Assembly (NCBI GenBank): GCA_964575225.1
Contig: CAZNQW010000004.1
Location: 1-50,462 of the forward strand
Reading direction: 5' to 3'
Source of the DNA: an uncultured Anaerolineaceae bacterium
GTDB taxonomy: Bacteria > Chloroflexota > Anaerolineae > JAAYZQ01
DNA length: 50,462 nucleotides
Numbering within the stretch: the first letter of the stretch is position 1; each line of letters opens with the position of its first letter. The notes under the pieces were generated by a model that worked only from the letters and a program-made list of their open reading frames with translations, ran no database searches and was not told where the DNA came from. The position numbers and the translations under genes were made by a program. Positions 17,709-40,005 of the stretch are shown here, in pieces.

Positions 17709-18761
17709 GTGGTGATCACGATTCTGCACGGCAATGACGAATTCGGCCGCTCTGAGGCTCTCCAGGCGATCCAATCCTACCATCGTCAGGGGGATCCGGC
17801 CATGGCCGATCTGAACACCACCGTCCTCGACGGAAGCCGCATCACTCTGGGGGAACTGCGCCATCACTGCGATTCCATCCCCTTCATGAGCGCCACTCGT
17901 TTAGTGATCGTCCACGGACTCTTGAACCGCCTCTTTCCCGATCCGGGCGCCAGGGGCGCCAAAGGCGACTCGGCACCCACGAGAAAGGCGCTGGTGAGCG
18001 ACCTGTTGGAGTATCTTCCCAAGCTGCCGCCCACGACTCATCTGGTGCTTTCCGACAACAAACCCCTCCCTCCGACGAATCCGATCCTCAAATGGGCCGC
18101 CGCGCAGCCCTCACCACCCAAGGGAGCGACGGCCGCCGGCACAGTCAGCCTGTTTTCGGTACCAAGAGACGCCGATCTGCCCAACTGGATTGCCAAACGA
18201 GCCAAGGAAAAAGAGGGGACGATAGACCGGGACGCTGCCAACCTAATGGCGGCCCTCATCGGCGCCGATCTGAGGTTGATCGACCAGGAGATCGAGAAAC
18301 TCCTCCTGTACACCGATGGCGCCAGCATCGCCACTCAGGACGTCCAACTACTCGTGAGCCGGGCACGCGAAGCCGGGATCTTTGACCTGGTGGATAGCGT
18401 GGGGCTGCGCCAAACAGCCCGGGCCCTCAAGCTCCTACATTCCATGCTGGCCGACCTGGCCGAACCCCTCTACCTCCTGTCCATGCTGGCTCGGCAGATC
18501 CGCATCCTCGTACAAGTCAAAGAGCTGGACGACCAAGGCCTATCCAAGCAGCAAATGGCCTCCCAGCTCAAGCTTCATCCGTATGTGGTGGAAAAGGGGA
18601 TGAACCAGGCCCGACGTTTCACCATGAGCCAACTCGAGTCGGCCCACGATCACCTGGTGAGAACTGACTGGCAGATAAAAACCGGCAAAGTCGACGACAT
18701 CCTCGCCCTGGATACCCTCATCGTCCACCTCACCCAAGAGGAACCCGCGTCTGCCCGCTGA
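17709..18761 (+). CDS. holA: DNA polymerase III delta subunit
   Basis: 350 aa. The layout ILHGNDEF...LVIVHGL...DRDAANLMAALIGADLRLIDQEIEKLLLY...V..LV is typical of HolA. Confidence 0.7.
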   Translation: MVITILHGNDEFGRSEALQAIQSYHRQGDPAMADLNTTVLDGSRITLGELRHHCDSIPFMSATRLVIVHGLLNRLFPDPGARGAKGDSAPTRKALVSDLLEYLPKLPPTTHLVLSDNKPLPPTNPILKWAAAQPSPPKGATAAGTVSLFSVPRDADLPNWIAKRAKEKEGTIDRDAANLMAALIGADLRLIDQEIEKLLLYTDGASIATQDVQLLVSRAREAGIFDLVDSVGLRQTARALKLLHSMLADLAEPLYLLSMLARQIRILVQVKELDDQGLSKQQMASQLKLHPYVVEKGMNQARRFTMSQLESAHDHLVRTDWQIKTGKVDDILALDTLIVHLTQEEPASAR

Positions 18762-18776: not shown

Positions 18777-19070
18777 CTAGGCCAGGCCCCAGTCTCCCGC
18801 CTGGCGCTGCCCACTCACTGTCTCGCCTGTCCATTCGCCCAGCCATAAATGATGCAGGAGAACATTCGTCGCCGAAACGACCCGGATCGTTGAGGAGCCC
18901 TCTCTGCCATCCATCACTACCTCTGTCGCCTTGTCCAAAGCCGTCGGGTGAACGTAGCAGAGGTTCGGCCATCGCCCGTAGCGCTCCCGGTAGCGCCGAA
19001 CCGCCTGTCCTATCTTGTCTTCGAGTGCCCGGTGCGGATCGTTGTCGTACCACAAAAGACCGACATCCAT
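18777..19070 (-). CDS. Hypothetical protein (gene 6 of the operator-gated operon)
   Basis: 97 aa with balanced composition (MDVGLLWYDNDPHRALEDKIGQAVRRYRERYGRWPNLCYVHP...). A GGAGGTG SD sits 5 nt upstream of the ATG. Confidence 0.55.
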   Translation of the reverse strand: MDVGLLWYDNDPHRALEDKIGQAVRRYRERYGRWPNLCYVHPTALDKATEVVMDGREGSSTIRVVSATNVLLHHLWLGEWTGETVSGQRQAGDWGLA

Positions 19071-19100
19071 CGCTTCACCTCCACCGAACCCACGCGCCGA

Positions 19101-19397
19101 TTAACGCCAGGCAACGGCGGCCTGACGAGCCGCCACCCTCGGTACATCCAACTTGGCGCGCCGTAGTTGCCACAACCCCGTATCTGCGTCCTGGAACAGC
19201 TCAAAGGTGCCTCCGCCCGCACGCACTTGGAAAAAGTGGCCCCGGACAAATCTTCGCCAACTGCGGCGCGATACCGTCCAACACCGTTCCACCGCCTCCA
19301 CCTGAAATCGCTGGCCCCGCCACCGAAACAGGTGCGGAAAATAGCGGTGGCGGCGCTCCACCATGTCCACCGACTCGTCAAAGATCTTCCAGCCCAT
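19101..19397 (-). CDS. Hypothetical R/W-rich small protein (gene 5)
   Basis: MGWKIFDES...FRWRGQRFQVEAVERCW...FFQVRAGGGTFELFQDADTGLWQL. A GGGAGGGAG SD sits 7 nt upstream of the ATG at 19397. The maximal ORF starts at 19442, directly abutting the stop of gene 4. Confidence 0.5.
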   Translation of the reverse strand: MGWKIFDESVDMVERRHRYFPHLFRWRGQRFQVEAVERCWTVSRRSWRRFVRGHFFQVRAGGGTFELFQDADTGLWQLRRAKLDVPRVAARQAAVAWR

Positions 19398-19442
19398 CGC
19401 GCTACTCCCTCCCGATGACCGGACCTCCCGGGCCCCAATCAC

Positions 19443-19844
19443 CTAACTCTGCCAGAAATCGCCCCGTTCGACCAATAGCTCGTCACCACCCACCACGTGG
19501 AAGTGTCGTTCGGCTGATGGGCTCGGCATAGGCGACGGCCAATACCCCCCCTGCAACATCGGCGGAAAGGCCTGGGGCGCTCCACCCTGCACTACCACGA
19601 CGGGCGGGTAGGCAGACTGGGCCGCCTGGCGCCTTACGACCTCCGCCTTGGAATCACGCCGATTCATCGCCACCAACACCAGCACCGAGGTCGGAATCCC
19701 CGACAACACACCGCACACAATCCCGATCACCACGGCCATCGCCTCCGTGCTCATCTGCCGGGCGACCACGACGGCCAGAACGATGACGAAACTGAGCGAC
19801 AGCAAAATGACTGCCTGTTTAAAGGTCACTTGCCCTACCTCCAT
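19443..19844 (-). CDS. Hypothetical membrane protein with two TM helices (gene 4)
   Basis: 133 aa. TM1 is AVILLSLSFVIVLAVVVA and TM2 is AMAVVIGIVCGVLSGIPTSVLVLVAM, followed by a soluble Pro-rich tail. Confidence 0.55.
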   Translation of the reverse strand: MEVGQVTFKQAVILLSLSFVIVLAVVVARQMSTEAMAVVIGIVCGVLSGIPTSVLVLVAMNRRDSKAEVVRRQAAQSAYPPVVVVQGGAPQAFPPMLQGGYWPSPMPSPSAERHFHVVGGDELLVERGDFWQS

Positions 19845-20110
19845 CCCGATCCATTAGTTCCGGCACTCGTGTCTTTGGATGCCGCCCTCTCGACTGTCGA
19901 AGGACTCGTCGCCGGCGATCGGGCCGCCCCCGGCGGACGAACGCCAAAGGCCACCGCCACGGCCAACAACGCGTCAAAGAAACCGCGCTGATAACTGGCC
20001 GCTGCATCCACATCGAGCGGCGCCACCGACCGCGCCGAATTCCTCATTACCTCCAGAGTCGATGCCAGAATGCGCGTCACATCCTCGCGAAACCACATGT
20101 CCAGGCCCAT
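19835..20110 (-). CDS. Hypothetical protein (gene 3)
   Basis: 91 aa with a helical N-terminal half (MWFREDVTRILASTLEVMRNSARSV...) and a low-complexity tail. It overlaps gene 4 by 10 nt. Confidence 0.45.
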   Translation of the reverse strand: MGLDMWFREDVTRILASTLEVMRNSARSVAPLDVDAAASYQRGFFDALLAVAVAFGVRPPGAARSPATSPSTVERAASKDTSAGTNGSGWR

Positions 20111-20152
20111 ACCGATTGAATCCTTTCCAGTGAACAGGTTTCCGTCCCTTCC

Positions 20153-21310
20153 TCATCGCACAAGTTGCAGCTTGGCCCGCAGCCGTTCGACTAATGGTGT
20201 TTCACTCGAGACCTTTCCATCCCCCTGAGGAGCCTCCAGTCTCAAGGCATCCCTTCCCTGCGACCGGTTCACGCGATCGACCAGGGCCTCGGCTGCCTGC
20301 GCCGACAGGTAGGCCGCCTGCATGCGCGTCGTCGACCCTTGGGCCACCACCAAGAAATCGCCCTGCCCCAATAACCGCTCGGCACCCGTTTGGGCAAGCC
20401 CAGTAGCCACCTTGGCGTCCTCCGGGCTCGTAACGGCGCCCACCAAACGGATCGGGAAATTGCTCTTGACCAGGCCGCCGATGACGGCAGCGGTCGGCTT
20501 TTGCGTACAAGCCACGATGTGGATGCCCGCCTCGCGCCCGCGCTGGGTCAGGCGCGTGAGGGCCAATTCCATCTCTTTCCCGCCCACCTGCACCAGGTCC
20601 GCCAACTCGTCGAGCACTACCACCAGGCGTGGTTCGGAGCGGCCTTCCCGATCCCTGCACTCCATCTCATCGACCAGTCGCTGCAACATCGCGAGAGCCT
20701 CATCGCAGCGGTTGATCACCGGCGCTAACAGGTGTCCCAACCCAGCAAAGGGAGAAAAACCCCTTCCCTTTGGATCGATCAAAACCAGTTGCAGCGCCCG
20801 GCGCCTGTTGAACATCACCAACGAGGCAATGATGCTACGGGCCAGCGCCGTCTTTCCGGAACCGGTCGTGCCCACGATCAACACATGGGCCACGTTGGGG
20901 CTGGGAAGCGGCAGAAGCAAAGGCGCGCCCTGTTGGTCGACCCCCAGGACCGCCGTAAAAGGGGGCACGGCCCGCATTGCCTTCGCACCTCGCGCCGCGG
21001 CATTGGATGCTGCATGTGCGACCAGAGTCCGGCACACCCGCTCCAAAGGCACCACCTGGCCGTCAGGGCGCGGTACTTCTACCTCCATTCGGCCCTCCTC
21101 CCGAAACACCCGACAGGAACTTGCCCCCAGGCTGAGGGCGATCTCTTCGGCCAGATTGGCCACCTGCCGCACCTTGACACCCAGGGGAGTCAAGAGGTGA
21201 AAGCGGATCAGGCGCGGCGCAACGTCCGCCCCGGTCACACGCGACGGCACCTTGTGGCTGGCGAGCACCTGCTCGATCCGGTCGGCCTGGAATTGCCACA
21301 CCTGTCTCAC
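20153..21310 (-). CDS. Soluble FtsK/SpoIIIE-family ATPase (alpha-like plus single motor domain, no TM and no gamma domain) (gene 2)
   Basis: Walker A is VLIVGTTGSGKTA and Walker B is RLVVVLDELADL. Further family patterns are GIHIVACTQKP and IRLVGAVTSPEDAKVATG...GAERLLGQGDFL. The N-terminal 130 aa resemble the FtsK alpha domain (PRLIRFHLLTPLGVKVRQVANLAEEIALSLG). Confidence 0.85.
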   Translation of the reverse strand: MRQVWQFQADRIEQVLASHKVPSRVTGADVAPRLIRFHLLTPLGVKVRQVANLAEEIALSLGASSCRVFREEGRMEVEVPRPDGQVVPLERVCRTLVAHAASNAAARGAKAMRAVPPFTAVLGVDQQGAPLLLPLPSPNVAHVLIVGTTGSGKTALARSIIASLVMFNRRRALQLVLIDPKGRGFSPFAGLGHLLAPVINRCDEALAMLQRLVDEMECRDREGRSEPRLVVVLDELADLVQVGGKEMELALTRLTQRGREAGIHIVACTQKPTAAVIGGLVKSNFPIRLVGAVTSPEDAKVATGLAQTGAERLLGQGDFLVVAQGSTTRMQAAYLSAQAAEALVDRVNRSQGRDALRLEAPQGDGKVSSETPLVERLRAKLQLVR

Positions 21311-21324
21311 GGCCCGACGGCTCC

Positions 21325-21807
21325 CTAGCCCGCCAACCCCACCAGATCAGGGCTGGGGAAAGGAACCACCCGTCCACCAACACCGGCGCGAGGCGCCCTC
21401 CGCTGAGGCAACGAGGGCATCGAATCCAGGGGACGCGCCACCCCCTCGAGAGGTTGCCTCAATGGGCAACCGGCACACTGCTTGGGTTGGGTAATGGGCA
21501 CAATCCGGGCTGCGCATGCCGCCTGCTCGAAACTGAGGGTCGGCGCCTCATCATCCCACACCTCCGTGCGCCCATTAAAGCGCACGATAAGGGAGGTCGC
21601 CGCTTTCTGCCGCAGCGAAAACCGCAGGTGAGCGCAGTTCACGGCCTTGTAGGGACACGCGCGACAGGTGTTGGGCGTCACGCGATTTTCGCCCTCCGTG
21701 ATTTTGGCGCACACAATCTGCCCATTCTTGGACACACTGCGGTGCTCGCAGGGACTCAACCCCTGCACCTGCTCGCGGAATCTTGCCAGCGATATCTCGG
21801 GACCCAT
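21325..21807 (-). CDS. Cys-rich hypothetical protein (gene 1)
   Basis: 160 aa with 8 Cys, including NTCRACP and KQCAGCP. A GGAAGGAGGG SD sits 5 nt upstream of the ATG at 21807. Confidence 0.6.
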   Translation of the reverse strand: MGPEISLARFREQVQGLSPCEHRSVSKNGQIVCAKITEGENRVTPNTCRACPYKAVNCAHLRFSLRQKAATSLIVRFNGRTEVWDDEAPTLSFEQAACAARIVPITQPKQCAGCPLRQPLEGVARPLDSMPSLPQRRAPRAGVGGRVVPFPSPDLVGLAG

Positions 21808-21831
21808 GTCGCCCTCCTTCCAGGCGCGTTT

Positions 21832-21868
21832 AGAACAACTGTTCTGATTATATCAGAACAATTGTTCT
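21832..21868 (-). promoter_or_regulatory. Two tandem GAAC-N4-GTTC palindromes (candidate Gram-positive-type LexA/SOS boxes)
   Basis: agaacaactgttct lies at 21832-21845 and agaacaattgttct at 21855-21868. Each is a 14-bp near-perfect palindrome. The centres are 23 bp apart. Confidence 0.6.
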
Positions 21869-21875
21869 AAGTCAA
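21847..21875 (-). promoter_or_regulatory. Near-consensus sigma-70 promoter (TTGACT-17-TATAAT) of the six-gene operon
   Basis: On the minus strand, -35 TTGACT is at 21870-21875 and -10 TATAAT at 21847-21852. One palindrome fills the spacer. The other covers the expected transcription start. Confidence 0.7.
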
Positions 21876-21911: not shown

Positions 21912-22496
21912 TTACGTCGAATGTTTTTCGTGGGGACGCCGAAGCCGGAGTTCATCCAACTCGGCCCGAAAGGGGAGCCAATCCCGCACAGGCAGGGCCA
22001 GGCCGGTGGCATCGGGACAGATCATGTAGCGGCTGACCCACAGTCGCATCTGAATGGTGGAAAGGGGCAGCCGCTCCATCTCGATGACCACCATGGTGGC
22101 CTGGGATATCGGTGCCAAAAAGTGTCCTTGACCAAAGGGCCATTGGGGGGGCGGAAACATACGCACCAGCTCGGTGGGCCGGGTCTGAAGGATCTCCGAA
22201 TAGGGGATTACAAAGCCTTTGAGGGGGAATTGCAGTAGCAGCCCCTCAGGGCGGCAACGTGCATACGCCCGCAATCGAAAAACGGACGTCAGAATGAGAA
22301 TCCCCGCGGTTCCCAAAAGAATGAGGGACAGCGACCCGCGATTTGTGGTCAATTCAGGCGGGTTCCAAGCCAGCAGCCCGCCGCACAGCACGAGCAACAG
22401 GATGCAGGGCCAAAAGGTCATCTCCTGCACTCTCTGCTGGAGCAGAAAGGGATGCCGTTTTCCTGCCTTGAAAGGTGTCGATCCGGGTGATGACAT
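21912..22496 (-). CDS. Membrane protein with bacterial PH-like (DUF304/YdbS-type) architecture
   Basis: Two TM helices (FWPCILLLVLCGGLLAW and LSLILLGTAGILILTSVF) are followed by a beta-rich domain. The upstream part of the 348-aa ORF-track ORF overlaps nth and is P/R/G-rich, so it is rejected. An alternative start is at 22421. Confidence 0.5.
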   Translation of the reverse strand: MSSPGSTPFKAGKRHPFLLQQRVQEMTFWPCILLLVLCGGLLAWNPPELTTNRGSLSLILLGTAGILILTSVFRLRAYARCRPEGLLLQFPLKGFVIPYSEILQTRPTELVRMFPPPQWPFGQGHFLAPISQATMVVIEMERLPLSTIQMRLWVSRYMICPDATGLALPVRDWLPFRAELDELRLRRPHEKHST

Positions 22497-22621
22497 ACGT
22501 ACACTCTCCCTCCGTTGCTTAGAAGGCGGCTTGGGTTCTCGCTGCCTGCCAACCGGTCCAGGGCCAGACCGAGGGCGGTTGGGCTTGGCCAGCCACGGGG
22601 CACAACGACGGCTGTGGGCCG

Positions 22622-23287
22622 TTACGCCAATCGCTGTTGATAGTCGTCGCAAAGGTCCGTCAGACTGCACCTTTCGCAGCGGGGGTTGCGGCTGGCGCAC
22701 ACCTCGCGCCCGTGTCGGATCAGGTTCAGGTGCAGCGCATAATACTGCTCGGGGTTTATCAGTTCTTCCAGTTCGTCGTGGGCCTTTTCGCGCGAGACTT
22801 TGGGACCGATGAGGCCGAGGCGGCGCGTCACCCGATGGACATGGGTATCCACGGGAAAGGCCGGCAGGCCCAGCGCAAAGAGCAGGACGATGGCTGCCGT
22901 CTTGGGTCCCACGCCGTGGATGGCCGACAGCCAGGCTTTGGCCCGGTCGATGGGCCAATCCGCCAGAAAGTCAAGGGTGAGTTCGCCCCGCTCCTCGCCC
23001 ACAATGCGCAGGGCCTCTTGAATGCGCGGACCCTTTTGATTGGCCAAGCCGGCAGGACGAATGGCCTCGACGACCTCCTCCACCGGGGCGTCGCACACCT
23101 CTTCCCAGGTGGGCAGGCGCTCGCGGAGCCGGTTGTAGGCCACATCGCGGTTGACATCGTTGGTGTTCTGGCTCAGGATGGTGCTCACCAGCTCCGACAC
23201 AGGGTCCAGATGGGGTCGCCACTCAGGTTCCCCGTAGGTGTCCAGGAGACGATGATGGACTTCTTGTGCCTTGGCCTGTACATCCAC
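22622..23287 (-). CDS. nth: Endonuclease III (HhH-GPD DNA glycosylase with C-terminal 4Fe-4S cluster loop)
   Basis: The HhH motif is LSAIHGVGPKTAAIVLLF, followed by PVDTHVHRV. The Cys ligands are CASRNPRCERCSLTDLC. Confidence 0.9.
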   Translation of the reverse strand: MDVQAKAQEVHHRLLDTYGEPEWRPHLDPVSELVSTILSQNTNDVNRDVAYNRLRERLPTWEEVCDAPVEEVVEAIRPAGLANQKGPRIQEALRIVGEERGELTLDFLADWPIDRAKAWLSAIHGVGPKTAAIVLLFALGLPAFPVDTHVHRVTRRLGLIGPKVSREKAHDELEELINPEQYYALHLNLIRHGREVCASRNPRCERCSLTDLCDDYQQRLA

Positions 23288-29895: not shown

Positions 29896-30729
29896 TTACT
29901 CTACTCCTGTTTCACGACCCGAGTTTCGCCGCTGGCGCAGGATTTCAAAGACCATCGCGGCGGTCGCTGCCGAAACGTTGAGGGACGTGGCTCGCCCCCC
30001 CATCGGCAACCGAACGGTCACGTCGGCCTCGGCGCGGAGTTGGGGCGGCAGACCTCTCTGCTCGTTGCCGATCAACAGGGCCAACGGCCCATCATAGTCG
30101 ACGTCATAATAGACCTGCTCGCCGTGGGCCGATGAGGCCACCACCCGAACGGGCAAGCCGGCCGATCGCAGGCTCGCGACCCAGGGCGCTAACATCGCCT
30201 CCTCCATTATCCGCACAATGGGCAGTGCATAAAGGGAACCCATGGTCGCCCGCACCGTCAACGGGCCATAGAGGTCCGCCGACGGTTCGACAATAACCAC
30301 AGCCGTGGCCAGGGCCGCGTCGGCGGTCCGGATGACGGAACCCAGGTTCCCAGGGTCGCGCAATTGAACGGCGACCAAGACCAACAGGTCGGGCGAAAGG
30401 GGGAGTTCCTGCAGGGTCGGTTCTTGGATCCGCATCACAGCGGCGATGCCCTGGGGTTGATCGCGGTCCGAAAGGGTGGCAAAGACCTCGGCAGCCAACA
30501 CCAGCCGTCGCGCCGGCTCCACGCGTTCGACAAGCGCCTGAGCCCGCTCGCTCACCAGGAGGTCAGGCGCATAGACCAACGTCTCCAGAGGGGCGCCCAG
30601 GTCCAGCGCCTCGTTGACGATGCGAATGCCCTCGATGAGGTACTGGCCCTCTCGCGTCCGGTGCTTGCGCTGTCGCAGCGCGCGCAGGGCTTTGACCCTT
30701 GGATTTTGAGTACTGGTGATCCGATCCAT
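29896..30729 (-). CDS. TrmH/SpoU-family RNA 2'-O-methyltransferase
   Basis: The N-terminal region is NPRVKALRALRQRKHR..EGQYLIEG. The SpoU motifs are LLIGNEQRGL and LPMGGRATSLNVSAATAAMVFE. The start at MDRIT (30729) avoids overlap with the upstream gene. Confidence 0.85.
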   Translation of the reverse strand: MDRITSTQNPRVKALRALRQRKHRTREGQYLIEGIRIVNEALDLGAPLETLVYAPDLLVSERAQALVERVEPARRLVLAAEVFATLSDRDQPQGIAAVMRIQEPTLQELPLSPDLLVLVAVQLRDPGNLGSVIRTADAALATAVVIVEPSADLYGPLTVRATMGSLYALPIVRIMEEAMLAPWVASLRSAGLPVRVVASSAHGEQVYYDVDYDGPLALLIGNEQRGLPPQLRAEADVTVRLPMGGRATSLNVSAATAAMVFEILRQRRNSGRETGVE

Positions 30730-32683: not shown

Positions 32684-33052
32684 ATGGGCAAGGAGGTCAA
32701 AGTGGTCGTAGAAGAGCCAACCGAACAGACCGAAAGCAATCCGCTCATGGGGATGATCCGTCGGCTGATGTTGGCCGGCATGGGCGCCATGGCGCTCACC
32801 CAGGACGAAGTGGAAAAGCTCGTCAACCGGTTGATCGATCGTGGCGAAATTGCCGAACAGGACGGCAAAAAGCTGGTACGTGAGGTCATGGAAAAGCGCA
32901 GGAGCGAAAGCATCCGGGTCGAGGACCAACTCGACAAACGAATTGAGGAACTGCTGGCCCGCATGAACGTGCCCACCAAGAGCGACCTTGACGCCCTCAG
33001 CGCCAAGATCACGGCGCTTGGCAAAAAGCTCGACGAACTCAAGAACCCGTAG
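32684..33052 (+). CDS. Phasin-like / PHA granule-associated coiled-coil protein
   Basis: The sequence LAGMGAMALTQDEVEKLVNRLIDRGEIAEQDGKKLVREVMEK...VPTKSDLDALSAKITALGKKLDEL is phasin-like. A GGGAGGTG SD precedes the ATG at 32684. Confidence 0.55.
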   Translation: MGKEVKVVVEEPTEQTESNPLMGMIRRLMLAGMGAMALTQDEVEKLVNRLIDRGEIAEQDGKKLVREVMEKRRSESIRVEDQLDKRIEELLARMNVPTKSDLDALSAKITALGKKLDELKNP

Positions 33053-33138
33053 CGCCCAACCCTGGGGGGGAGGCGAAGGTTCTCGACGCCTCCCCCACTG
33101 CTCTGCCAGCCTGCTGCCGCCGCACGGAGAGCCCGCCC

Positions 33139-33714
33139 ATGCCGGTCATCAAACGCTATCCCAATCGCAAACTGTACGACACACAGGAAAAGCGGTACAT
33201 CACCCTGGAGGGCATCGCCGACCTGATCCGCCTGGGCCACACAGTCCAGGTCCTGGATCATGCAACCGGCGAGGATCTGACTGCCGTCACCCTGACCCAG
33301 ATCATTTTTGAGCAGGAAAAAAAGCGCAGGGGGTTTGTACCCCAAAGCATCTTGGCCGGCCTCATCCAGTCGGGAGGACAGACCATGGGCGCGCTGCGGC
33401 GCACCCTGGCTTCACCCTTGGAACTGGCGCGCCACGTCGACGACGAGATCGAGCGGCGCGTTCAATCCCTCATTGTCCGGGGCGAAATGGCTGCGGAAGA
33501 AGGAATTCGTCTCATGGACGGTCTGCTGAGCCAGCATGCCGGGGACCGGGACGCGTGGAACGCGCCCGGCGACGCTGCGCTGCAAGAGGCGCTGGAGGGA
33601 GCCCTGCAAGAACATGGAGTGCCCACACGCCACGACCTCGAGCCGCTCTTTGATCAAATCGACGCTCTGGCGCAAAAGCTGGATGAGATGGCCGATTCTC
33701 TGCAGGGAGACTGA
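33139..33714 (+). CDS. phaR: PhaR-type polyhydroxyalkanoate synthesis repressor
   Basis: The N-terminal signature is MPVIKRYPNRKLYDTQEKRYITLEGIADLIR...VTLTQIIFEQEKK. Confidence 0.8.
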   Translation: MPVIKRYPNRKLYDTQEKRYITLEGIADLIRLGHTVQVLDHATGEDLTAVTLTQIIFEQEKKRRGFVPQSILAGLIQSGGQTMGALRRTLASPLELARHVDDEIERRVQSLIVRGEMAAEEGIRLMDGLLSQHAGDRDAWNAPGDAALQEALEGALQEHGVPTRHDLEPLFDQIDALAQKLDEMADSLQGD

Positions 33715-33730
33715 GGGCCCGTCAGGGGGT

Positions 33731-36040
33731 CTACTCGCTTCCCCTCCATCGCCGCCAAAGCGCCAGCCCCCCCATGACGAGTAGAACCAGCACCGTGACC
33801 AGGGTGATCCCCAGGCCCACAGACCAGGAGGTTGGGCGATACACCATCTCCACGCGGTGCGTTCCCGGCCCCACTTGCACGGCACGGAAGGCATAGTTGG
33901 CGCGCACGATGGGCGCCTTTTCCCCATCCACCGTGGCCTGCCAGCCGGGATAGTGGGGATCGCTGAGCACCACATAGCCTTCGGCCGGGCTCTCTACCTC
34001 GAGTACCAATCGATCCGATTCATAATCTACCACTTGTACCACGCCCTGTCCGGCGTCCGACCCGGCGAGGGACCGGCCCCCTTCCAGGACGACCGTCTTA
34101 GCCGGGTCAAAATCGGCCTCGTGGATGCGCGCCCAGGCCTCCTCGTGGTTATCGGCCTGTACCGTGCGGAATACCACAAAGGCCCGCGGCAGGGCCGCTC
34201 TATTCTGATAGACGTTCACCTCCGGGTCCTGATCAAAGGCCAGGGTGAACTTGGCTTCATCCAGGACGACGTCCTTGCTGCCCAGCACATAGCGCACACC
34301 CAGAAAATCGTAGAGCGCCGACGAGCGGCCGCCTAGGCCTTCATAGTAGCGGGCCACATCGGCCACCATCAGCGGGTTGTCCACTCCGCTCACGTCGTAC
34401 AACCCGGCCAGCAGGGCCAGGTTCGGCTGCCAGTTTCCCCACACGTCAGTGCGCGAGTCAATGCGAAATTGGTCCGGGTCGGAGGCCAGGAACTCGACGA
34501 TGCGGGAATGGTCAAAACCGGCCGTGGGCGCCTCTCGACCGATGTCGGTGTGGGCGCCCAGCGAGGCCAGATCGACGAACACCAACCCCACCGCCAGCCA
34601 GGCCAGCGTGGCTCGCGGCAAACGCCCGGTGCGCCGGGCGCTAAGCCAGGCCAGCGCCGCAGCCAACATCAGCAGGCAAAAGACCAGACCGCTCCCTGCC
34701 ATCGACACCCGCCAAAAGAGGGTCGGGTCCCGGTCCTGAGCCTGGTAGATCATGGTATAGGCCCACAGCCCGCCCAAGAGTATCGCGCCGCTGCCAAACC
34801 AGAGCAGCCACCGCCATGCCCCGTCCAGCGCCTTTCGGTCGCGCCGGTCCAACGGGCCGAGCAGGCGATCCAGCCCCAAGGCCGCCAGCGCTGCCAACCC
34901 AAAATCGACCAGGAGGATCAGGCGCGCCGGGGCGCGAAGGTGGCCAAAGCCCGGCAGCAGCCGGTAGGCCCACCCGTGAAAGACCGACTCCCCACCCAAC
35001 GCCAGCAGAAAGGCCACCCCGGCCAATACCACAAAGGGCCGAACCTTGGGTCCGCGGCGCAGCAAGAGCGCCAGGCCCGCCAGCACCAGGGTCAGGATGC
35101 CCACATAGCCCACCGCCACCCGGTCCCAGACCCCCCAGTACAGCGACGGCTCTCGACTGCCGAACAGCGCCGGCACAAACATCTCGCCCAACAACCCCGG
35201 AACCAGCGAATAGCGGGCGGCGTCCCAATAACTCAGCCCGGCGCGCGGGCTCAGGCGCGCATACTCAAAGGCAGGCAGCAGCACCAACGCCGACAACCCC
35301 ACCGCCACCGCGGCCGTAACGGCCAGCGCCAGGAGCGACCAGGCTCGATCTCGCCCTTCTCGGCGGCCTGACGCATCCACCGCCGTCAATACGGCCAACG
35401 CCAGCCCAATGTACAGCGTGATCTGCAGGTGGCCTTCCAGCGTGGCGATGCCCAGGGCCACGCCCGCCCCCACCGCCAACCCCAGACGGCGAGTTCGAAC
35501 CGCCCGCCAAAAGAAAAGAACGATCAGGGGCAGCCAGGCCGCCACGGCGACCAGGTTCAGGTTGCCAAAGTGGACGATGAACAGGTCGGAGAACATATAG
35601 GCCACGGCGCCCAGCATCGCAGCCGGAACGCGCAGGCGATGGCCCGGTTCGAAATATCGCAGGCAGAGGTACATGAACAACCCGGCCAAAAAGACATGGA
35701 ACACCACCATCCACTCCATCGCCTTGTAGCCGAAATCCGGTACCAGCAGGAACAGGATCAGATTGAGAGGGTAAAAAAGGCCGGTCTGCATGTCGGCCAG
35801 AAAGGGAGCCCCGCCATACAGATGGGGGTTCCACAGGGGCAGGTCTCCGGCCCGCAATTGGGCGGCAGCGAAACGATAGACAGGGTACAGAAAAGAGACC
35901 AAGTCACCGCCGCCGGCCGGCTTCCAGGCATCGGAGGTGAACAAGATCCGCCCAAAAAAGCCCAGTACGGCCGCCAGCAAAAGAGCCAAAGCGCCGATCT
36001 CGTCTGCAATCGCTCGAGTTCTCGTCCTCATCGCTCGCAT
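33731..36040 (-). CDS. YfhO-family polytopic membrane protein (GT-C-like glycosyl carrier-dependent transferase)
   Basis: 769 aa with more than 12 TM segments. The motif is LWNPHLYGGAPFLADMQTGLFYPLNLILFLL. A large C-terminal extracytoplasmic domain is followed by a final TM segment. Confidence 0.75.
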   Translation of the reverse strand: MRAMRTRTRAIADEIGALALLLAAVLGFFGRILFTSDAWKPAGGGDLVSFLYPVYRFAAAQLRAGDLPLWNPHLYGGAPFLADMQTGLFYPLNLILFLLVPDFGYKAMEWMVVFHVFLAGLFMYLCLRYFEPGHRLRVPAAMLGAVAYMFSDLFIVHFGNLNLVAVAAWLPLIVLFFWRAVRTRRLGLAVGAGVALGIATLEGHLQITLYIGLALAVLTAVDASGRREGRDRAWSLLALAVTAAVAVGLSALVLLPAFEYARLSPRAGLSYWDAARYSLVPGLLGEMFVPALFGSREPSLYWGVWDRVAVGYVGILTLVLAGLALLLRRGPKVRPFVVLAGVAFLLALGGESVFHGWAYRLLPGFGHLRAPARLILLVDFGLAALAALGLDRLLGPLDRRDRKALDGAWRWLLWFGSGAILLGGLWAYTMIYQAQDRDPTLFWRVSMAGSGLVFCLLMLAAALAWLSARRTGRLPRATLAWLAVGLVFVDLASLGAHTDIGREAPTAGFDHSRIVEFLASDPDQFRIDSRTDVWGNWQPNLALLAGLYDVSGVDNPLMVADVARYYEGLGGRSSALYDFLGVRYVLGSKDVVLDEAKFTLAFDQDPEVNVYQNRAALPRAFVVFRTVQADNHEEAWARIHEADFDPAKTVVLEGGRSLAGSDAGQGVVQVVDYESDRLVLEVESPAEGYVVLSDPHYPGWQATVDGEKAPIVRANYAFRAVQVGPGTHRVEMVYRPTSWSVGLGITLVTVLVLLVMGGLALWRRWRGSE

Positions 36041-36061
36041 CCCTCTTCCCGCCCTCTTGCG

Positions 36062-38071
36062 CTACCGGCCCACAACGACGACCGAGCCCAAAAGAACCCG
36101 ATCGTCGGGCAGCCGCTGCCCCAACGCATCATAAGCGGGCACACGGGTCATGGTCGCCAGATCGTAAAGCCCGGCCTCCAACTCGTATTCCCCCGGAGGG
36201 GCATCGGCGGGAATGGCCAGCGGGTGCACGTCGAGGATTACCTCGCCAGGCTGCCACACCGTCGTGGGGTAATGCCCTTGCAGGGGCGGGCTGTCGTGTC
36301 CGGCCCACATCGGTCCCTGAGTAGCCGGATTGTGGCCGCCCAACAGGTGGCTGAAAACGGTATAGTCGGTGTCCATGGGGGCCAGAGCCTCCCAATAGAC
36401 CGTCAGGCGCACCGTGTCGCCGGGCGAAACCCTCTCGGCATCGACCTCATAGCCGAGCAGCCGAACACTGTCGCCTACAATGGCCTCCATCCGGTGCTCC
36501 GGTTCAAGCGCAGGGGTCTCACGGGCCGGCAGTTGGTAGGCGGCCGCATAGGGCCGATCGTAGCCGTCGTTCAGTGACCAACCCACCTGCCCATCAGGGC
36601 GCAGGCGTTGAAGGAGCGGCAGCGTCTCGGTGTCCTCCCGCAGCAGCACCACCATCGTCGCAGCGCGTCCGGGCGGAGGGACCACCAACCCGGCCCGTCC
36701 ATCGAACGTGGCAAAAGGCCGCCCGACCAGGAATTGCAGGGTGAAATGTTCCCGGTCCGTAGGAGTCAGGTACACGTGCTCTGCCCCTGGCACCGAGTTG
36801 ATCCGGCGGGCGCTCTCGGCCAGCCCTACGTCGTACGCATAGAACAGATCCGGACTGCGCCCCCAGGTCTGAAAATAGTCATGGACCGTGGAAACCGCAG
36901 AAAGGAGCAACCCTCCGCCCAGGAATAGGGCAACCGCTACCGTGACCCAGCGCCGCCTCAGATGCAACGCCCCTTCCCCCAGCGTCCAGGCGCCCAGGGC
37001 GCACAGCAGGGCCAGGGCCGGGGTGGCGCCAATCGCCCGGCCAAAGTGGGGCGCGTGCTCGGTGATCAGGGTGGGCGTCACCATCACGCCCAGCCACAAC
37101 AAGGGCAGCCCCGTCAAAGGTCGCCGCAACCCGATCAGCGACCGGGAGCACCCCACCAGGAACAGCAGGGCCAGGAAGGGGTCCAGGGCTGGGCGGCCCG
37201 GCAGATTGCTGCGCGGGTTGGCATCGCCGCGCACAAAGAACATGCCCAAGACCCGGCTCAGGTTCTGCCCCCAGGCCTGAAGAGCCCCCAGGGGAACCCC
37301 TTCTTCGCCCCCCAGAGCGACGCTCGTTGGGCGCTGGAGGAAATGGGCCGGATGGGTGGCAAAGTACACACCGATGGGCGCTGCCACGATCAACGCCACC
37401 AGGCCCAGGAGGAGCAGTCCGCGGCGATGGCGCTGCCAAAAACCCCGCTCCACGATCAGGCCGTACAAAAGGAACAATCCGGCTAACACAGGCACGAAAT
37501 AGCCGGCCTTATAGGTGTAGAGGCTGCCCCCCAGGGCCACCCCGGCCAGGGCAAAAGCCCCCGGCCGGCCGCTGTTCAACCCCCAGACCAGAGAGGCAAA
37601 GGCCCCTGTGGCGAAAAAGGGCACCAGGATCGGCTCCATCCCAATGCGGCTAAAGCTCAGGTGCCAATACAGCACAGCCAGGACCAGCGCCGTCCCCAGT
37701 CCTGCGACCTGTCCCCGCAGTTTTCGCCCCTTGCCGAACACCTCACGGCCCAGCCACCAGGCCAACGGCACCGTCAGCGTCCCCACCACAGCCGACGGCA
37801 GCCGGATGGCCCAGGGCTCCGGCCCGACCACCGCCAGCGCCGCCGCCACCAAATACATGGCAATCGGTTCCTCCCCCATATCGCTCTCAAAGAACAATCG
37901 GGGCGGATCGCCGGCCAGCAGCCCCCGGGCGGTGACGCCTTTGAACCCCTCATCGAAATGCAGGCCCGGGGGAAGCTCGGTCAGGTAGGAAAACCGAAGG
38001 GTCCCCGCCAGCAGCGTGATCAGCACGACCAACAACGCTTCCCACCGTAGGGACAGTATACGTTGCCTCAT
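36062..38071 (-). CDS. GT39/ArnT-PMT-like glycosyltransferase (GT-C fold), paralogue 1
   Basis: 669 aa and polytopic. The first-loop acidic motif is LHFDEGFKG. The C-terminal beta-domain (VRLTVYWEALAPMDTDYTVFSHLL) is shared with the neighbouring paralogue. Confidence 0.75.
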   Translation of the reverse strand: MRQRILSLRWEALLVVLITLLAGTLRFSYLTELPPGLHFDEGFKGVTARGLLAGDPPRLFFESDMGEEPIAMYLVAAALAVVGPEPWAIRLPSAVVGTLTVPLAWWLGREVFGKGRKLRGQVAGLGTALVLAVLYWHLSFSRIGMEPILVPFFATGAFASLVWGLNSGRPGAFALAGVALGGSLYTYKAGYFVPVLAGLFLLYGLIVERGFWQRHRRGLLLLGLVALIVAAPIGVYFATHPAHFLQRPTSVALGGEEGVPLGALQAWGQNLSRVLGMFFVRGDANPRSNLPGRPALDPFLALLFLVGCSRSLIGLRRPLTGLPLLWLGVMVTPTLITEHAPHFGRAIGATPALALLCALGAWTLGEGALHLRRRWVTVAVALFLGGGLLLSAVSTVHDYFQTWGRSPDLFYAYDVGLAESARRINSVPGAEHVYLTPTDREHFTLQFLVGRPFATFDGRAGLVVPPPGRAATMVVLLREDTETLPLLQRLRPDGQVGWSLNDGYDRPYAAAYQLPARETPALEPEHRMEAIVGDSVRLLGYEVDAERVSPGDTVRLTVYWEALAPMDTDYTVFSHLLGGHNPATQGPMWAGHDSPPLQGHYPTTVWQPGEVILDVHPLAIPADAPPGEYELEAGLYDLATMTRVPAYDALGQRLPDDRVLLGSVVVVGR

Positions 38072-39999
38072 GGCGCCACGACCTCAACCGCACCCAACAA
38101 CACCCGGTCGCCCAGATAGGCGCCATCGTCCGGATCGGTGACCGGCAGCCGCTCAAAGGTCTCGAGCAGGTACATTCCCACTTCCAGCCAGTAGGTGCCG
38201 GGCTGAGCGCCCTCGTCCACTTTGAGGGCATAGTTATCCTCGACGACCTGCCCGACCGTCCAGCGGTTGGTCGGCAGGCCGCCGCCCTGGGGCTCGCTGT
38301 CCACCTGGGCCCAAATCTGGTCGTCCCAATCCAAAAGGTGGGTAAAGACGGTGTAGCCCTTGTCCATCGGCGCCAGGGCCTGCCAATACAACGTCAGCAG
38401 CAGCGGTTCGCCGGGGACCACCGAATCTCCGCTCAGAACATAGCCCGCCAATCGCACCCCATCGCCCAGGTTCACCCCCACCGGAACCTGCGCCACCTCG
38501 CTCCCGGTCGGGCGCATCACGTACAGCGCCAGGTCCGCGTCGACCCAGCCGTCAAAGTAGGCCTTGCTGCCCCGTGTGGCCAACCACCGCGGCAGGAAAT
38601 CGGTGGGATCGAACTCGGCGGGATTTCCGAAACGGACCAGCCACAGGCGCGGATGCCGCACAGCGATCTCTTCCAGATCGCGCGCCGTCTCCGAATCCTC
38701 CAGGGCCACATCGTAGCGCGGGAAAAAGTAGGCCGCCAGACCCTCCGGCTGATAATAGTCGAACAGGGGCCGCTGAAGGGGATTGACCAGGATCAACCCA
38801 TCCCCAGGGTCAGCCTGCTCCTCCACGTAGGCCATCATCTGCCCGTATCGGCCCCGGACAAACTCCTGGTCCGTGTAGTAGGCTCCCAGGCCATAACTGC
38901 TGATGCCGAGCAACAAAAGAGCTCCCACCAGTCCCAGAGGGCGCCCCAGATGGCCCAGCATCGCCACGCCCCAAGCAGCCAACAGGCAATAGGCCGGCGC
39001 CACCAACAACAGGTAGCGGGGGTAGAAAAAGGGCATGATGGGGTTGACGGCCCAGGCCAGCAGAAGGGGAACACCCAGCCAGGCGATCACCATCCCCAGT
39101 TCGAACCGGGCGCTGCGGGCCGCGAAGGCCACACCCACCAGGACCGCGCCCAGGTAGGCTGCCGCAAGCCACGCGCCCACTGGAGCCGGTACCGACGGAC
39201 CCGCCCCAAAGGCGAGAGCTGTATCACCCGCGATGCGCAGCGCGGTGTCGAGGTTCCATTCGGCAAAACGGCCGCTGGCTTTGCCACCCAGGAAATCGCT
39301 CTGCACCACCACCCAAGGCACATAGGCCAGAGCCATTGTCGCCTGCGCCCCCAACCACCGGCCCAGATCCGCCCAACGACGATGACGCAACAGCAGAAGG
39401 CCCGCCACCAGATTCTGGGCTACGACGACGAAAAAAGCATAATAGTGGGTATAGACGGCGCCGAGGGTGACGACCACATAGGCCCACCATCGCCCGGGCG
39501 AGCGCGGATCCTGCAACAGGCGCAGCGCCCAATACATCGAGGCGGCTGCCAGCAGGGTCACCAGCCCATACATGCGCGTTTCCTGGGCATAAAAGACCAA
39601 AACCGGCGATAAAGCCGTCAACGCCGCGGCCAGCATGCTGGCCCCCTGGGTCCATCGGTGGTTACCCTCGCGAGAAAGGGACGCAAGCGCTCGGCAGCTC
39701 AGCGCATAGACCACCGGAACCGTCAACGTGCCAATCAGAGCCGAAAGCGACCGCACAGCCAGGGGTGTGAGGCCCGTCAGTCGAATCCACACATAGAGCA
39801 AAAAGGGATAGAGGGGAGGGTGAGTGTCGGCACCGCCGGCTACCACCTCGGGCAGGGGCTGGCGGCTGAGCCAAATGCTGAATGCCTCGTCCCCCCAGAT
39901 GTCCTGGCGATCGATGGCATAAAGCCGGAGACCAAAAGCCAGTACGACGAGAATCAGGACCCCCCAGCGAAATCCTTGGGCGCGCGGCGTTCCAGTCAT
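38068..39999 (-). CDS. GT39/ArnT-PMT-like glycosyltransferase (GT-C fold), paralogue 2
   Basis: 643 aa. The first-loop motif is IWGDEAFS. The C-terminal domain is LLLTLYWQALAPMDKGYTVFTHLL. It has a 4-nt overlap with paralogue 1. Confidence 0.75.
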   Translation of the reverse strand: MTGTPRAQGFRWGVLILVVLAFGLRLYAIDRQDIWGDEAFSIWLSRQPLPEVVAGGADTHPPLYPFLLYVWIRLTGLTPLAVRSLSALIGTLTVPVVYALSCRALASLSREGNHRWTQGASMLAAALTALSPVLVFYAQETRMYGLVTLLAAASMYWALRLLQDPRSPGRWWAYVVVTLGAVYTHYYAFFVVVAQNLVAGLLLLRHRRWADLGRWLGAQATMALAYVPWVVVQSDFLGGKASGRFAEWNLDTALRIAGDTALAFGAGPSVPAPVGAWLAAAYLGAVLVGVAFAARSARFELGMVIAWLGVPLLLAWAVNPIMPFFYPRYLLLVAPAYCLLAAWGVAMLGHLGRPLGLVGALLLLGISSYGLGAYYTDQEFVRGRYGQMMAYVEEQADPGDGLILVNPLQRPLFDYYQPEGLAAYFFPRYDVALEDSETARDLEEIAVRHPRLWLVRFGNPAEFDPTDFLPRWLATRGSKAYFDGWVDADLALYVMRPTGSEVAQVPVGVNLGDGVRLAGYVLSGDSVVPGEPLLLTLYWQALAPMDKGYTVFTHLLDWDDQIWAQVDSEPQGGGLPTNRWTVGQVVEDNYALKVDEGAQPGTYWLEVGMYLLETFERLPVTDPDDGAYLGDRVLLGAVEVVAP

Positions 40000-40005
40000 G
40001 CGATC

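Follow-up and report, generated by a model that had tools for sequence, protein, structure and literature searches.

On the contig of an uncultured Anaerolineaceae bacterium (Chloroflexota; GenBank assembly GCA_964575225.1, contig CAZNQW010000004.1, of which the 50,462 nucleotides analyzed are called the window here), six co-directional minus-strand genes, g1 to g6 in order of transcription, follow a single promoter that carries two palindromes well supported as operators of the SOS repressor LexA. One of these genes, g2, encodes a small soluble DNA motor of the FtsK type and another, g4, a protein with two transmembrane (TM) helices, and it is this pair that relatives keep together. The interpretation I favor, and to which I would give about an even chance of being right, is that the operon is a LexA-repressed, split version of an FtsK pump, i.e., an auxiliary translocase induced in the SOS response to handle damaged or unsegregated DNA at septa. 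In what follows I will lay out the evidence for the regulation, the motor and its membrane partner, and weigh the other functions that the same genes could serve.

An earlier note on this DNA, made from the letters alone, had described a six-gene operon behind one promoter, and all of its open reading frames (ORFs) are present in the ORF listing of the window, together spanning 18777-21807 (Table 1). The genes are closely spaced (14, 42, -10, 45 and 30 nt from g1 through to g6) and a GGAGG-like ribosome-binding site precedes most of them. When the window is compared with a 90%-identical relative (locus L005), the ratio of nonsynonymous to synonymous substitution (dN/dS) is 0.08-0.18 for all six genes (g1, 0.17; g3, 0.13; g4, 0.11; g5, 0.08), and therefore all six are real protein-coding genes under purifying selection, including the small ORFs, every one of which is also encoded by relatives.

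Table 1. Positions of the operon genes, promoter elements and flanking genes in the window
Feature	Position	Strand	Remarks
g1	21325..21807	-	160 aa
g2	20153..21310	-	385 aa, GTG start
g3	19835..20110	-	91 aa
g4	19443..19844	-	133 aa
g5	19101..19397 (from ATG)	-	98 aa; the mechanical ORF extends to 19442
g6	18777..19070	-	97 aa
Shine-Dalgarno sequence GGAGG of g1	21813..21817	-	read off the sequence
-35 hexamer TTGACT	21870..21875	-	promoter scan
LexA (SOS) box 1, AGAACAATTGTTCT	21855..21868	.	occupies the -35/-10 spacer; predicted from motif and conserved position
-10 hexamer TATAAT with TG extended -10	21847..21852	-	promoter scan; tGgTATAAT kept in relatives
LexA (SOS) box 2, AGAACAACTGTTCT (plus-strand letters)	21832..21845	.	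predicted; directly after the -10, over the likely transcription start
holA	17709..18761	+	synteny with annotated relatives
nth	22622..23287	-	synteny with annotated relatives
Membrane-protein gene, ~190 aa	~21912..22500	-	between nth and the promoter; without Pfam family; conserved

The promoter (TTGACT-17-TATAAT, 21875..21847) agrees with the consensus at 11 of 12 positions, a match that alone is at chance level in the promoter scan (1 found vs 1.1 expected), and it is here that both of the AGAAC-N4-GTTCT sites of the window lie, just two being present when one mismatch is tolerated. The core of these palindromes, GAAC-N4-GTTC, is what LexA binds in Bacillus subtilis, in mycobacteria and in Gram-positive bacteria generally (PMC3323433). 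A third and last GAAC-N4-GTTC in the window (30338-30349, GAACCCAGGTTC) has neither the A/T flanks nor the R-N-R-Y core that characterize the family motif and is probably there by chance. Within the Chloroflexota, Dehalococcoides reportedly also uses GAAC-N4-GTTC as its LexA motif.

The case for LexA control is built on relatives of g2, which were collected at 84 loci amounting to 1.1 Mb, from 80 species-representative genomes and 4 metagenome contigs; all of the genomes are from Chloroflexota (Anaerolineae, Caldilineae and Ardenticatenia lineages) and include Litorilinea aerophila and Ca. Amarolinea. Of the 173 GAAC-N4-GTTC sites in these loci, 169 are in the 3.1 kb preceding the g2 homologue; these zones account for 21% of the 1.1 Mb. 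At least one box lies upstream in 81/84 loci, and the contigs of the other three end a short way upstream of the gene. The geometry is near-invariant as well, since nearly all homologous loci read cTTGACA-nn-GAACnnnnGTTC-tg-gTATAAT, with the TTGACA-like hexamer at equal distance from the first box, and a second box often follows 22-36 bp downstream of the first. Chance occurrence of the palindromes is rejected, given that their position is conserved in more than 80 homologous loci. Furthermore, 58 of 62 lexA-like genes in the related loci bear the same box at their own start, which is the standard signature of autoregulation, and the motif is therefore the LexA site of these organisms. Placement of the operon under SOS control, with the two palindromes as LexA operators, is thus well supported by comparative sequence evidence, and the earlier note's idea of DNA-damage-responsive control, together with its suggestion that the palindromes might be conserved upstream of homologues, holds up.

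The connection to LexA extends to gene order, with lexA, a LexA paralogue, or both situated directly upstream of the operon and on the same strand in approximately 45 of the 84 loci. In many loci the operon itself opens with a second LexA paralogue, at 30-58% (mostly 42-58%) identity to the reference LexA. Paralogues upstream of g1/g2 were seen at L007, L009, L013, L017, L019, L022, L025-L030 and L034-L040, and further at L054, L058, L067, L070, L072 and L076; most retain the Ala-Gly cleavage site and the Ser/Lys dyad. Degenerate forms occur too, GDSM having become GDFM in L013 and the AAG cleavage site being missing in L067, and the paralogues of L015 and L016 consist of a 90-aa winged-helix domain only.

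The g2 protein matches FtsK_alpha (PF17854, 2.9e-11) and FtsK_SpoIIIE (PF01580, 4.3e-34) in Pfam, its residues 9-346 align to the FtsK alpha/beta motor structures 2ius and 2iuu (E=1.5e-41), and its Walker A (GTTGSGKT) and Walker B (DELAD) motifs are invariant in the homologue alignment. An FtsK_gamma match is absent in the Pfam search and the FtsK alignment stops at residue 346, after which the last 39 residues form a variable linker and a short conserved tail (L..RLR.RL.LVK); the hydropathy profile has no hydrophobic or TM window. More than 2400 homologues exist, of which the best 120 are 311-418 aa long. Pfam, structure alignment and hydropathy are all in agreement with the earlier reading of g2 as an FtsK/SpoIIIE alpha region plus a single motor domain, without membrane anchor or gamma. 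By analogy with its family, the protein is expected to assemble into hexameric rings and to translocate double-stranded DNA (dsDNA), and the missing gamma domain means that reading of polarity of the kind guided by KOPS (FtsK-orienting polar sequences) and activation of XerD are not part of its repertoire. A role in type VII secretion is rejected: there is one ATPase domain only, g2 reaches 44-63 bits with the EccC/EssC profile models, whose cut-offs are 347-778, and none of g3, g5 and g6 has a WXG100 match in Pfam.

Whatever g2 does, it does in the company of g4. A jackhmmer search of the locus ORFs placed g4 downstream of g2 in 78/84 loci, most of the six others coming from contigs that end ~1-2 kb past g2, and within the examined loci g4 was never found apart from the motor gene. 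The conserved unit is g2 plus g4, and the remaining genes are lineage-variable accessories (g6 in 34 loci, g1 in 33, g3 in 24 and g5 in 20), such that the co-occurrence across Chloroflexota raised in the earlier note applies to the pair but not to the set of six. The g4 protein begins with a basic N-terminus, followed by two TM helices (the two hydrophobic segments were already noticed earlier and are confirmed), an RRR patch, a YPPVVVV motif, a linker rich in Pro, Gln and Gly, an RxFxVVGxD motif and an acidic tail, as judged from alignment and hydropathy; from the distribution of charge, both of its ends are predicted to be cytoplasmic. There is no match to any sequence family in Pfam, PHROGs, NCBIfam or PADLOC. 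Because this anatomy is like that of the N-domain and Pro/Gln-rich linker of canonical FtsK, g4 is read as the membrane tether of the motor, and it most likely holds g2 at the membrane or septum in the role that N-domain and linker would have in the canonical protein.

A gene for a small LexA-controlled membrane protein next to lexA is also the typical signature of the SOS division inhibitors of Gram-positive bacteria, and g4 is indeed small, membrane-bound by prediction, LexA-boxed and often adjoining lexA, with the operon of one relative located just downstream of an mreCD-pbp2-minCDE-rodA cluster. One could consequently propose that g4 blocks division in the manner of YneA, ChiZ, DivS or SidA, with the ATPase and the remaining gene products tuning the block or lifting it. 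I hold this to be very unlikely: the protein has neither a LysM nor any other periplasmic domain, and the conserved part outside the membrane is predicted to face the cytoplasm. In the loci its gene never stands apart from that of the motor, in phage-like contigs the two are likewise paired, and the established inhibitors are not known to be accompanied by a translocase. The obligate pairing and the cytoplasmic tail suit a membrane tether at least as well as a division inhibitor.

The phage-like contigs just mentioned come from a scan of IMG/VR, which produced 13 contigs (L085-L096 and L104) with g2 relatives of 430-480 aa at 42-54% identity; in 7 of the 13 a g4-like gene follows the motor, and in none is there a LexA box near the motor gene. 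Encoded alongside are integrases, N6/N4 methylases, ParM-like actins, ParB, DUF5131, a tail protein and terminase, and in L086 the motor gene sits in a co-directional block directly downstream of Sak4-like and DUF5131 genes. The viral motors carry a conserved C-terminal extension of ~60 residues (W..G...G-rich), possibly a DNA-binding element, which is absent in all chromosomal SOS-linked copies. Cultured phages and plasmids returned generic FtsK-domain matches only, at no more than ~36% identity. A neighbor-joining tree with a viral sequence as root places the viral copies as a grade at the base and unites the LexA-linked chromosomal copies in a single derived clade, within which identity is 51-90% across the class. 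A motor and 2-TM module of mobile elements was probably recruited into the host SOS regulon, as far as the tree and the gene content suggest, and the 'domesticated DNA-transfer module' that the earlier note listed among its options gains support because phage-like contigs carry motors this similar that lack LexA boxes.

It is a further step to propose that the operon is still in essence a phage or plasmid module, domesticated or residual, that acts on foreign or replicating DNA in defense, superinfection exclusion or the handling of element DNA. The similarity of the viral motors, several of them with their g4-like gene, is in keeping with such a role, as are their basal position and their location in early/replication regions by Sak4-like, DUF5131 and methylase genes; also, the distal half of the operon is diverged or recombined between near-identical genomes, a pattern frequent in conflict systems. 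At the level of domains, g2 even matches the defense proteins SspH and mad8 in PADLOC, but these matches are confined to the generic FtsK-like ATPase domain and are rejected as evidence of defense. With no nuclease or effector domain recognizable, no mobile-element genes near the chromosomal copies, and those copies united in one clade with fixed linkage to lexA or nth/holA and strong purifying selection, I regard a role of this kind as improbable.

This leads back to the split pump at the septum, the reading I prefer, which can be told as a sequence of events. In the undamaged cell, LexA dimers on both boxes, one in the promoter spacer and one over the transcription start, would keep the promoter blocked, and DNA damage would release it via RecA-stimulated self-cleavage of LexA such that all six genes are transcribed. 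A hexamer of g2, whose activity is deduced from the FtsK family, would then pump dsDNA while anchored at the membrane or septum through g4; g1, g3, g5 and g6 would be accessories, with candidate roles in recognizing DNA or damage or in regulating the motor. The DNA being moved in the course of the SOS response would be chromosomal and damaged, unsegregated or trapped at septa.

Support for such a septal translocase is found in two precedents, the soluble SftA of B. subtilis and the SOS-induced ftsK of Escherichia coli. SftA, which is needed for damage tolerance and which reportedly clears DNA from septa, its mutants being sensitive to DNA damage, is like g2 a soluble FtsK-family motor without TM segments; unlike g2, it has a gamma domain and an N-terminal septum-targeting region, is monocistronic and, to my knowledge, is not a member of the LexA regulon. 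The E. coli gene is under LexA control and is SOS-induced from the dinH promoter, its transcription rising after damage (PMC4080785), as is predicted for g2, and the two products share the alpha/beta dsDNA motor. The architecture differs, in that E. coli FtsK is a single, essential divisome protein of 1329 aa that includes a 4-TM N-domain, a long linker, and gamma for KOPS reading and XerD activation, whereas the operon provides a 385-aa soluble motor lacking gamma, encodes the membrane part as a 2-TM protein of its own and adds four orphan proteins.

That difference brings up the first of two points that count against the interpretation I have given. Chromosome-clearing translocases (FtsK, SpoIIIE, SftA) normally require gamma for directionality, and the absence of this domain from g2 weakens the chromosome-clearing function, such that a function in DNA transfer or one derived from phage fits equally. 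The second point concerns the origin: the rooting of the tree is weak, and transfer may have run in the opposite direction, from host to phage.

If the motor does not clear septa, it could move DNA between cells, i.e., a tethered g2 might be induced by SOS to pump dsDNA from one cell of a filament to another, supplying templates for recombinational repair. The Anaerolineae that host the operon are, as a matter of general knowledge, filamentous and multicellular, the motor is consistently paired with a small membrane protein and is free of the polarity-reading gamma of the chromosome-segregation translocases, and its nearest non-chromosomal relatives belong to mobile elements of the same phylum that carry ParM-like, ParB, integrase and methylase genes. 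A similar partnership is known from Streptomyces, where TraB is said to be an FtsK-like hexameric pump for plasmid transfer and where the small membrane protein SmeA reportedly directs the FtsK-like SffA to septa; TraB/Spd and SmeA-SffA thus resemble the operon in pairing an FtsK-like pump with small proteins of the membrane, likewise in filamentous, multicellular bacteria. Yet TraB and SffA have TM segments of their own and neither is known to be SOS-regulated, TraB also possesses a C-terminal winged helix-turn-helix domain that reads clt repeats and is borne on plasmids or AICEs (actinomycete integrative and conjugative elements), and g2 scores 34.9 bits against the NCBIfam TraB model, for which the cut-off is 800. 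Neither the TM segments nor the winged helix is present in g2, and no channel-forming, peptidoglycan-remodeling or clt-like recognition component can be identified in the operon. On balance I consider transfer between cells fairly unlikely as the function of these genes.

A damage-induced precedent for such exchange is known from the Sulfolobales, where an FtsK/HerA-superfamily ATPase acts together with small membrane proteins (10.1101/2024.09.27.615246, PMC11823120). The components of this UV-induced Ced system are CedA, CedA1, CedA2 and CedB, and it shares with the operon a motor of that superfamily, small membrane partners and, as far as predicted for the operon, induction by damage and the movement of DNA for repair; it differs in being archaeal, related to conjugation machinery and an importer of DNA. 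The likeness between g2 and CedB is at the level of the superfamily only (21.8 bits vs a cut-off of 700). It is quite unlikely, in my estimate, that the operon is the bacterial counterpart of Ced in the full sense, namely an SOS-induced, chromosomally encoded descendant of a phage or plasmid module for spreading DNA that now pumps dsDNA between neighbors in the filament for recombinational repair.

Returning to the split pump, its four accessory proteins offer few names to work with. The g1 protein has 8 Cys, among them the two CxxC pairs pointed out earlier (C48-x2-C51 and C111-x2-C114), all invariant or nearly so in relatives, and it ends in a conserved GKVVPFPxR tail; it is probably a metal-binding protein. 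Its 323 homologues include none that is named or in a Pfam family, searches of Pfam, NCBIfam, PADLOC and PHROGs and a profile search of PDB sequences gave no match, and the AlphaFold2 (AF2) model, built on 41 sequences, is poor (predicted local distance difference test, pLDDT, 44.5). In g3 the N-terminal MGLDLWFREDV..IL is conserved, in a region that looks helical by eye, and the tail is variable; again there is no family match in Pfam, PHROGs, NCBIfam or PADLOC.

The g6 protein has been somewhat more forthcoming in structural terms, with a confident AF2 model (pLDDT 80.8; predicted template-modeling score, pTM, 0.71) of beta-alpha-beta4 arrangement and an alignment in which K19 is invariant and D9, D11, C38, H73 and H74 are invariant or nearly so. 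Foldseek found no neighbor of the model at E<=1e-3 in PDB or BFVD, and Pfam, PHROGs, NCBIfam, PADLOC and a profile search of PDB sequences were similarly empty. The statement in the earlier note that g3 to g6 match nothing nameable is thus upheld for g3, g4 and g6, but not for the R/W-rich g5, which has a match to PF20114 (DUF6504) at E=1e-4 and 22.7 bits, below the gathering cut-off of 24.2. Of 58 sampled phmmer homologues of g5, 47 match PF20114 (best 1.9e-9), and g5 may on this weak match be regarded as a divergent DUF6504 protein. The g5 family is small, with 147 representatives among 1.84 billion proteins; DUF6504 is not mentioned in the searchable literature, and a metagenome scan for context outside Anaerolineae, done with the distant DUF6504 member P0424, had no matches.

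The comparison with L005 also exposed an irregularity within the operon. The two genomes are collinear and 90-97% identical across ~11 kb, and in 18844-20330 of the window (the 3' end of g2 plus g3-g6) identity falls to 72-77%, to be back at 87% in holA. Synonymous divergence (dS) is 0.32 for g1 and g2 and 1.1-1.35 for g3-g6, with dN/dS low throughout. This pattern suggests that the distal half of the operon is an allele of ancient divergence that arrived by recombination, one that may vary together with the C-terminal tail of the g2 motor.

As for the surroundings, the earlier note had named holA and nth as flanking genes, and synteny identifies both, but a conserved gene for a membrane protein of ~190 aa intervenes between nth and the promoter. 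Relatives have it at the syntenic position (194 aa in L002, 196 aa in L128), and it sits outside the LexA-controlled unit. Neighbor sets in the related loci comprise nth/holA, mreCD-pbp2-minCDE-rodA-nth, or glnA-lexA upstream with uvrC downstream, and no integrase or phage gene was seen near chromosomal copies at the syntenic loci examined. In the window there is no tRNA, no Rfam match and no direct repeat bracketing the operon, and GC is 0.60-0.63 through the operon region without a break; the earlier note had likewise seen no tRNA, flanking direct repeats or compositional break. An integrative and conjugative element (ICE or AICE) or a prophage at this place is rejected, on account of the missing tRNA and bracketing repeats, the flat GC and the housekeeping neighbors; nor are homologous clusters confined to integrative elements or prophages, as the earlier note had allowed they might be, since chromosomal copies lie among core genes.

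Several further observations were made along the way. Seven metagenome-assembled genomes hold two paralogous copies of the operon on separate contigs (L008/L010, L013/L015, L016/L017, L019/L020, L012/L021, L011/L014 and L031/L032), often with one by lexA and the other by nth/holA. A convergent pair of Hsp20 genes lies just 3' of the operon in L128 (11692-12674, g1-type) and in L130 (12128-13087, lexA-type), and uvrC comes after the pair in L130. Elsewhere in the window, AT skew is unusually high over 33000-40000, at 0.15-0.45 per kb in all but one of the seven 1-kb bins and 0.11 in that one; the stretch covers three long ORFs on the minus strand (769, 669 and 643 aa).

What is already known, then, is SOS control of an FtsK-family motor and the existence of soluble FtsK-like proteins. 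Multi-gene cassettes behind LexA boxes are familiar too, lexA2-imuA-imuB-dnaE2 being reportedly widespread and, like the operon, often led by its own LexA paralogue, although its genes are wholly different and the operon contains no Y-family or DnaE2 polymerase. The earlier note had taken a small soluble translocase under tight control to be an undescribed module, and a search of the accessible literature (LexA/FtsK/Chloroflexi, Anaerolineae/LexA and DUF6504) indeed gave no description of the operon. Not found in that literature, and new as far as it goes, are the combination of a split, gamma-less motor, a 2-TM protein dedicated to it and as many as four orphans behind a conserved double LexA operator, and the occurrence of this cassette, lexA-linked or led by a LexA paralogue, throughout the class and with viral relatives.

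Wastewater, sediments and soils all harbor abundant Anaerolineae, whose DNA-damage biology is essentially unstudied. The operon ties the 8-Cys g1, g6 and DUF6504 to a DNA-damage context that is testable, which is of value for annotation, and it would give the SOS field a class-wide regulon member, a lexA-linked DNA-pump cassette parallel to imuA-imuB-dnaE2. For those interested in translocases it represents a natural 'split FtsK', a simple system for exploring how a motor is targeted and how it acts without KOPS reading. Similarly, from an evolutionary point of view, the phage-borne relatives suggest that a motor of mobile elements has been drawn into the stress regulon of the host.

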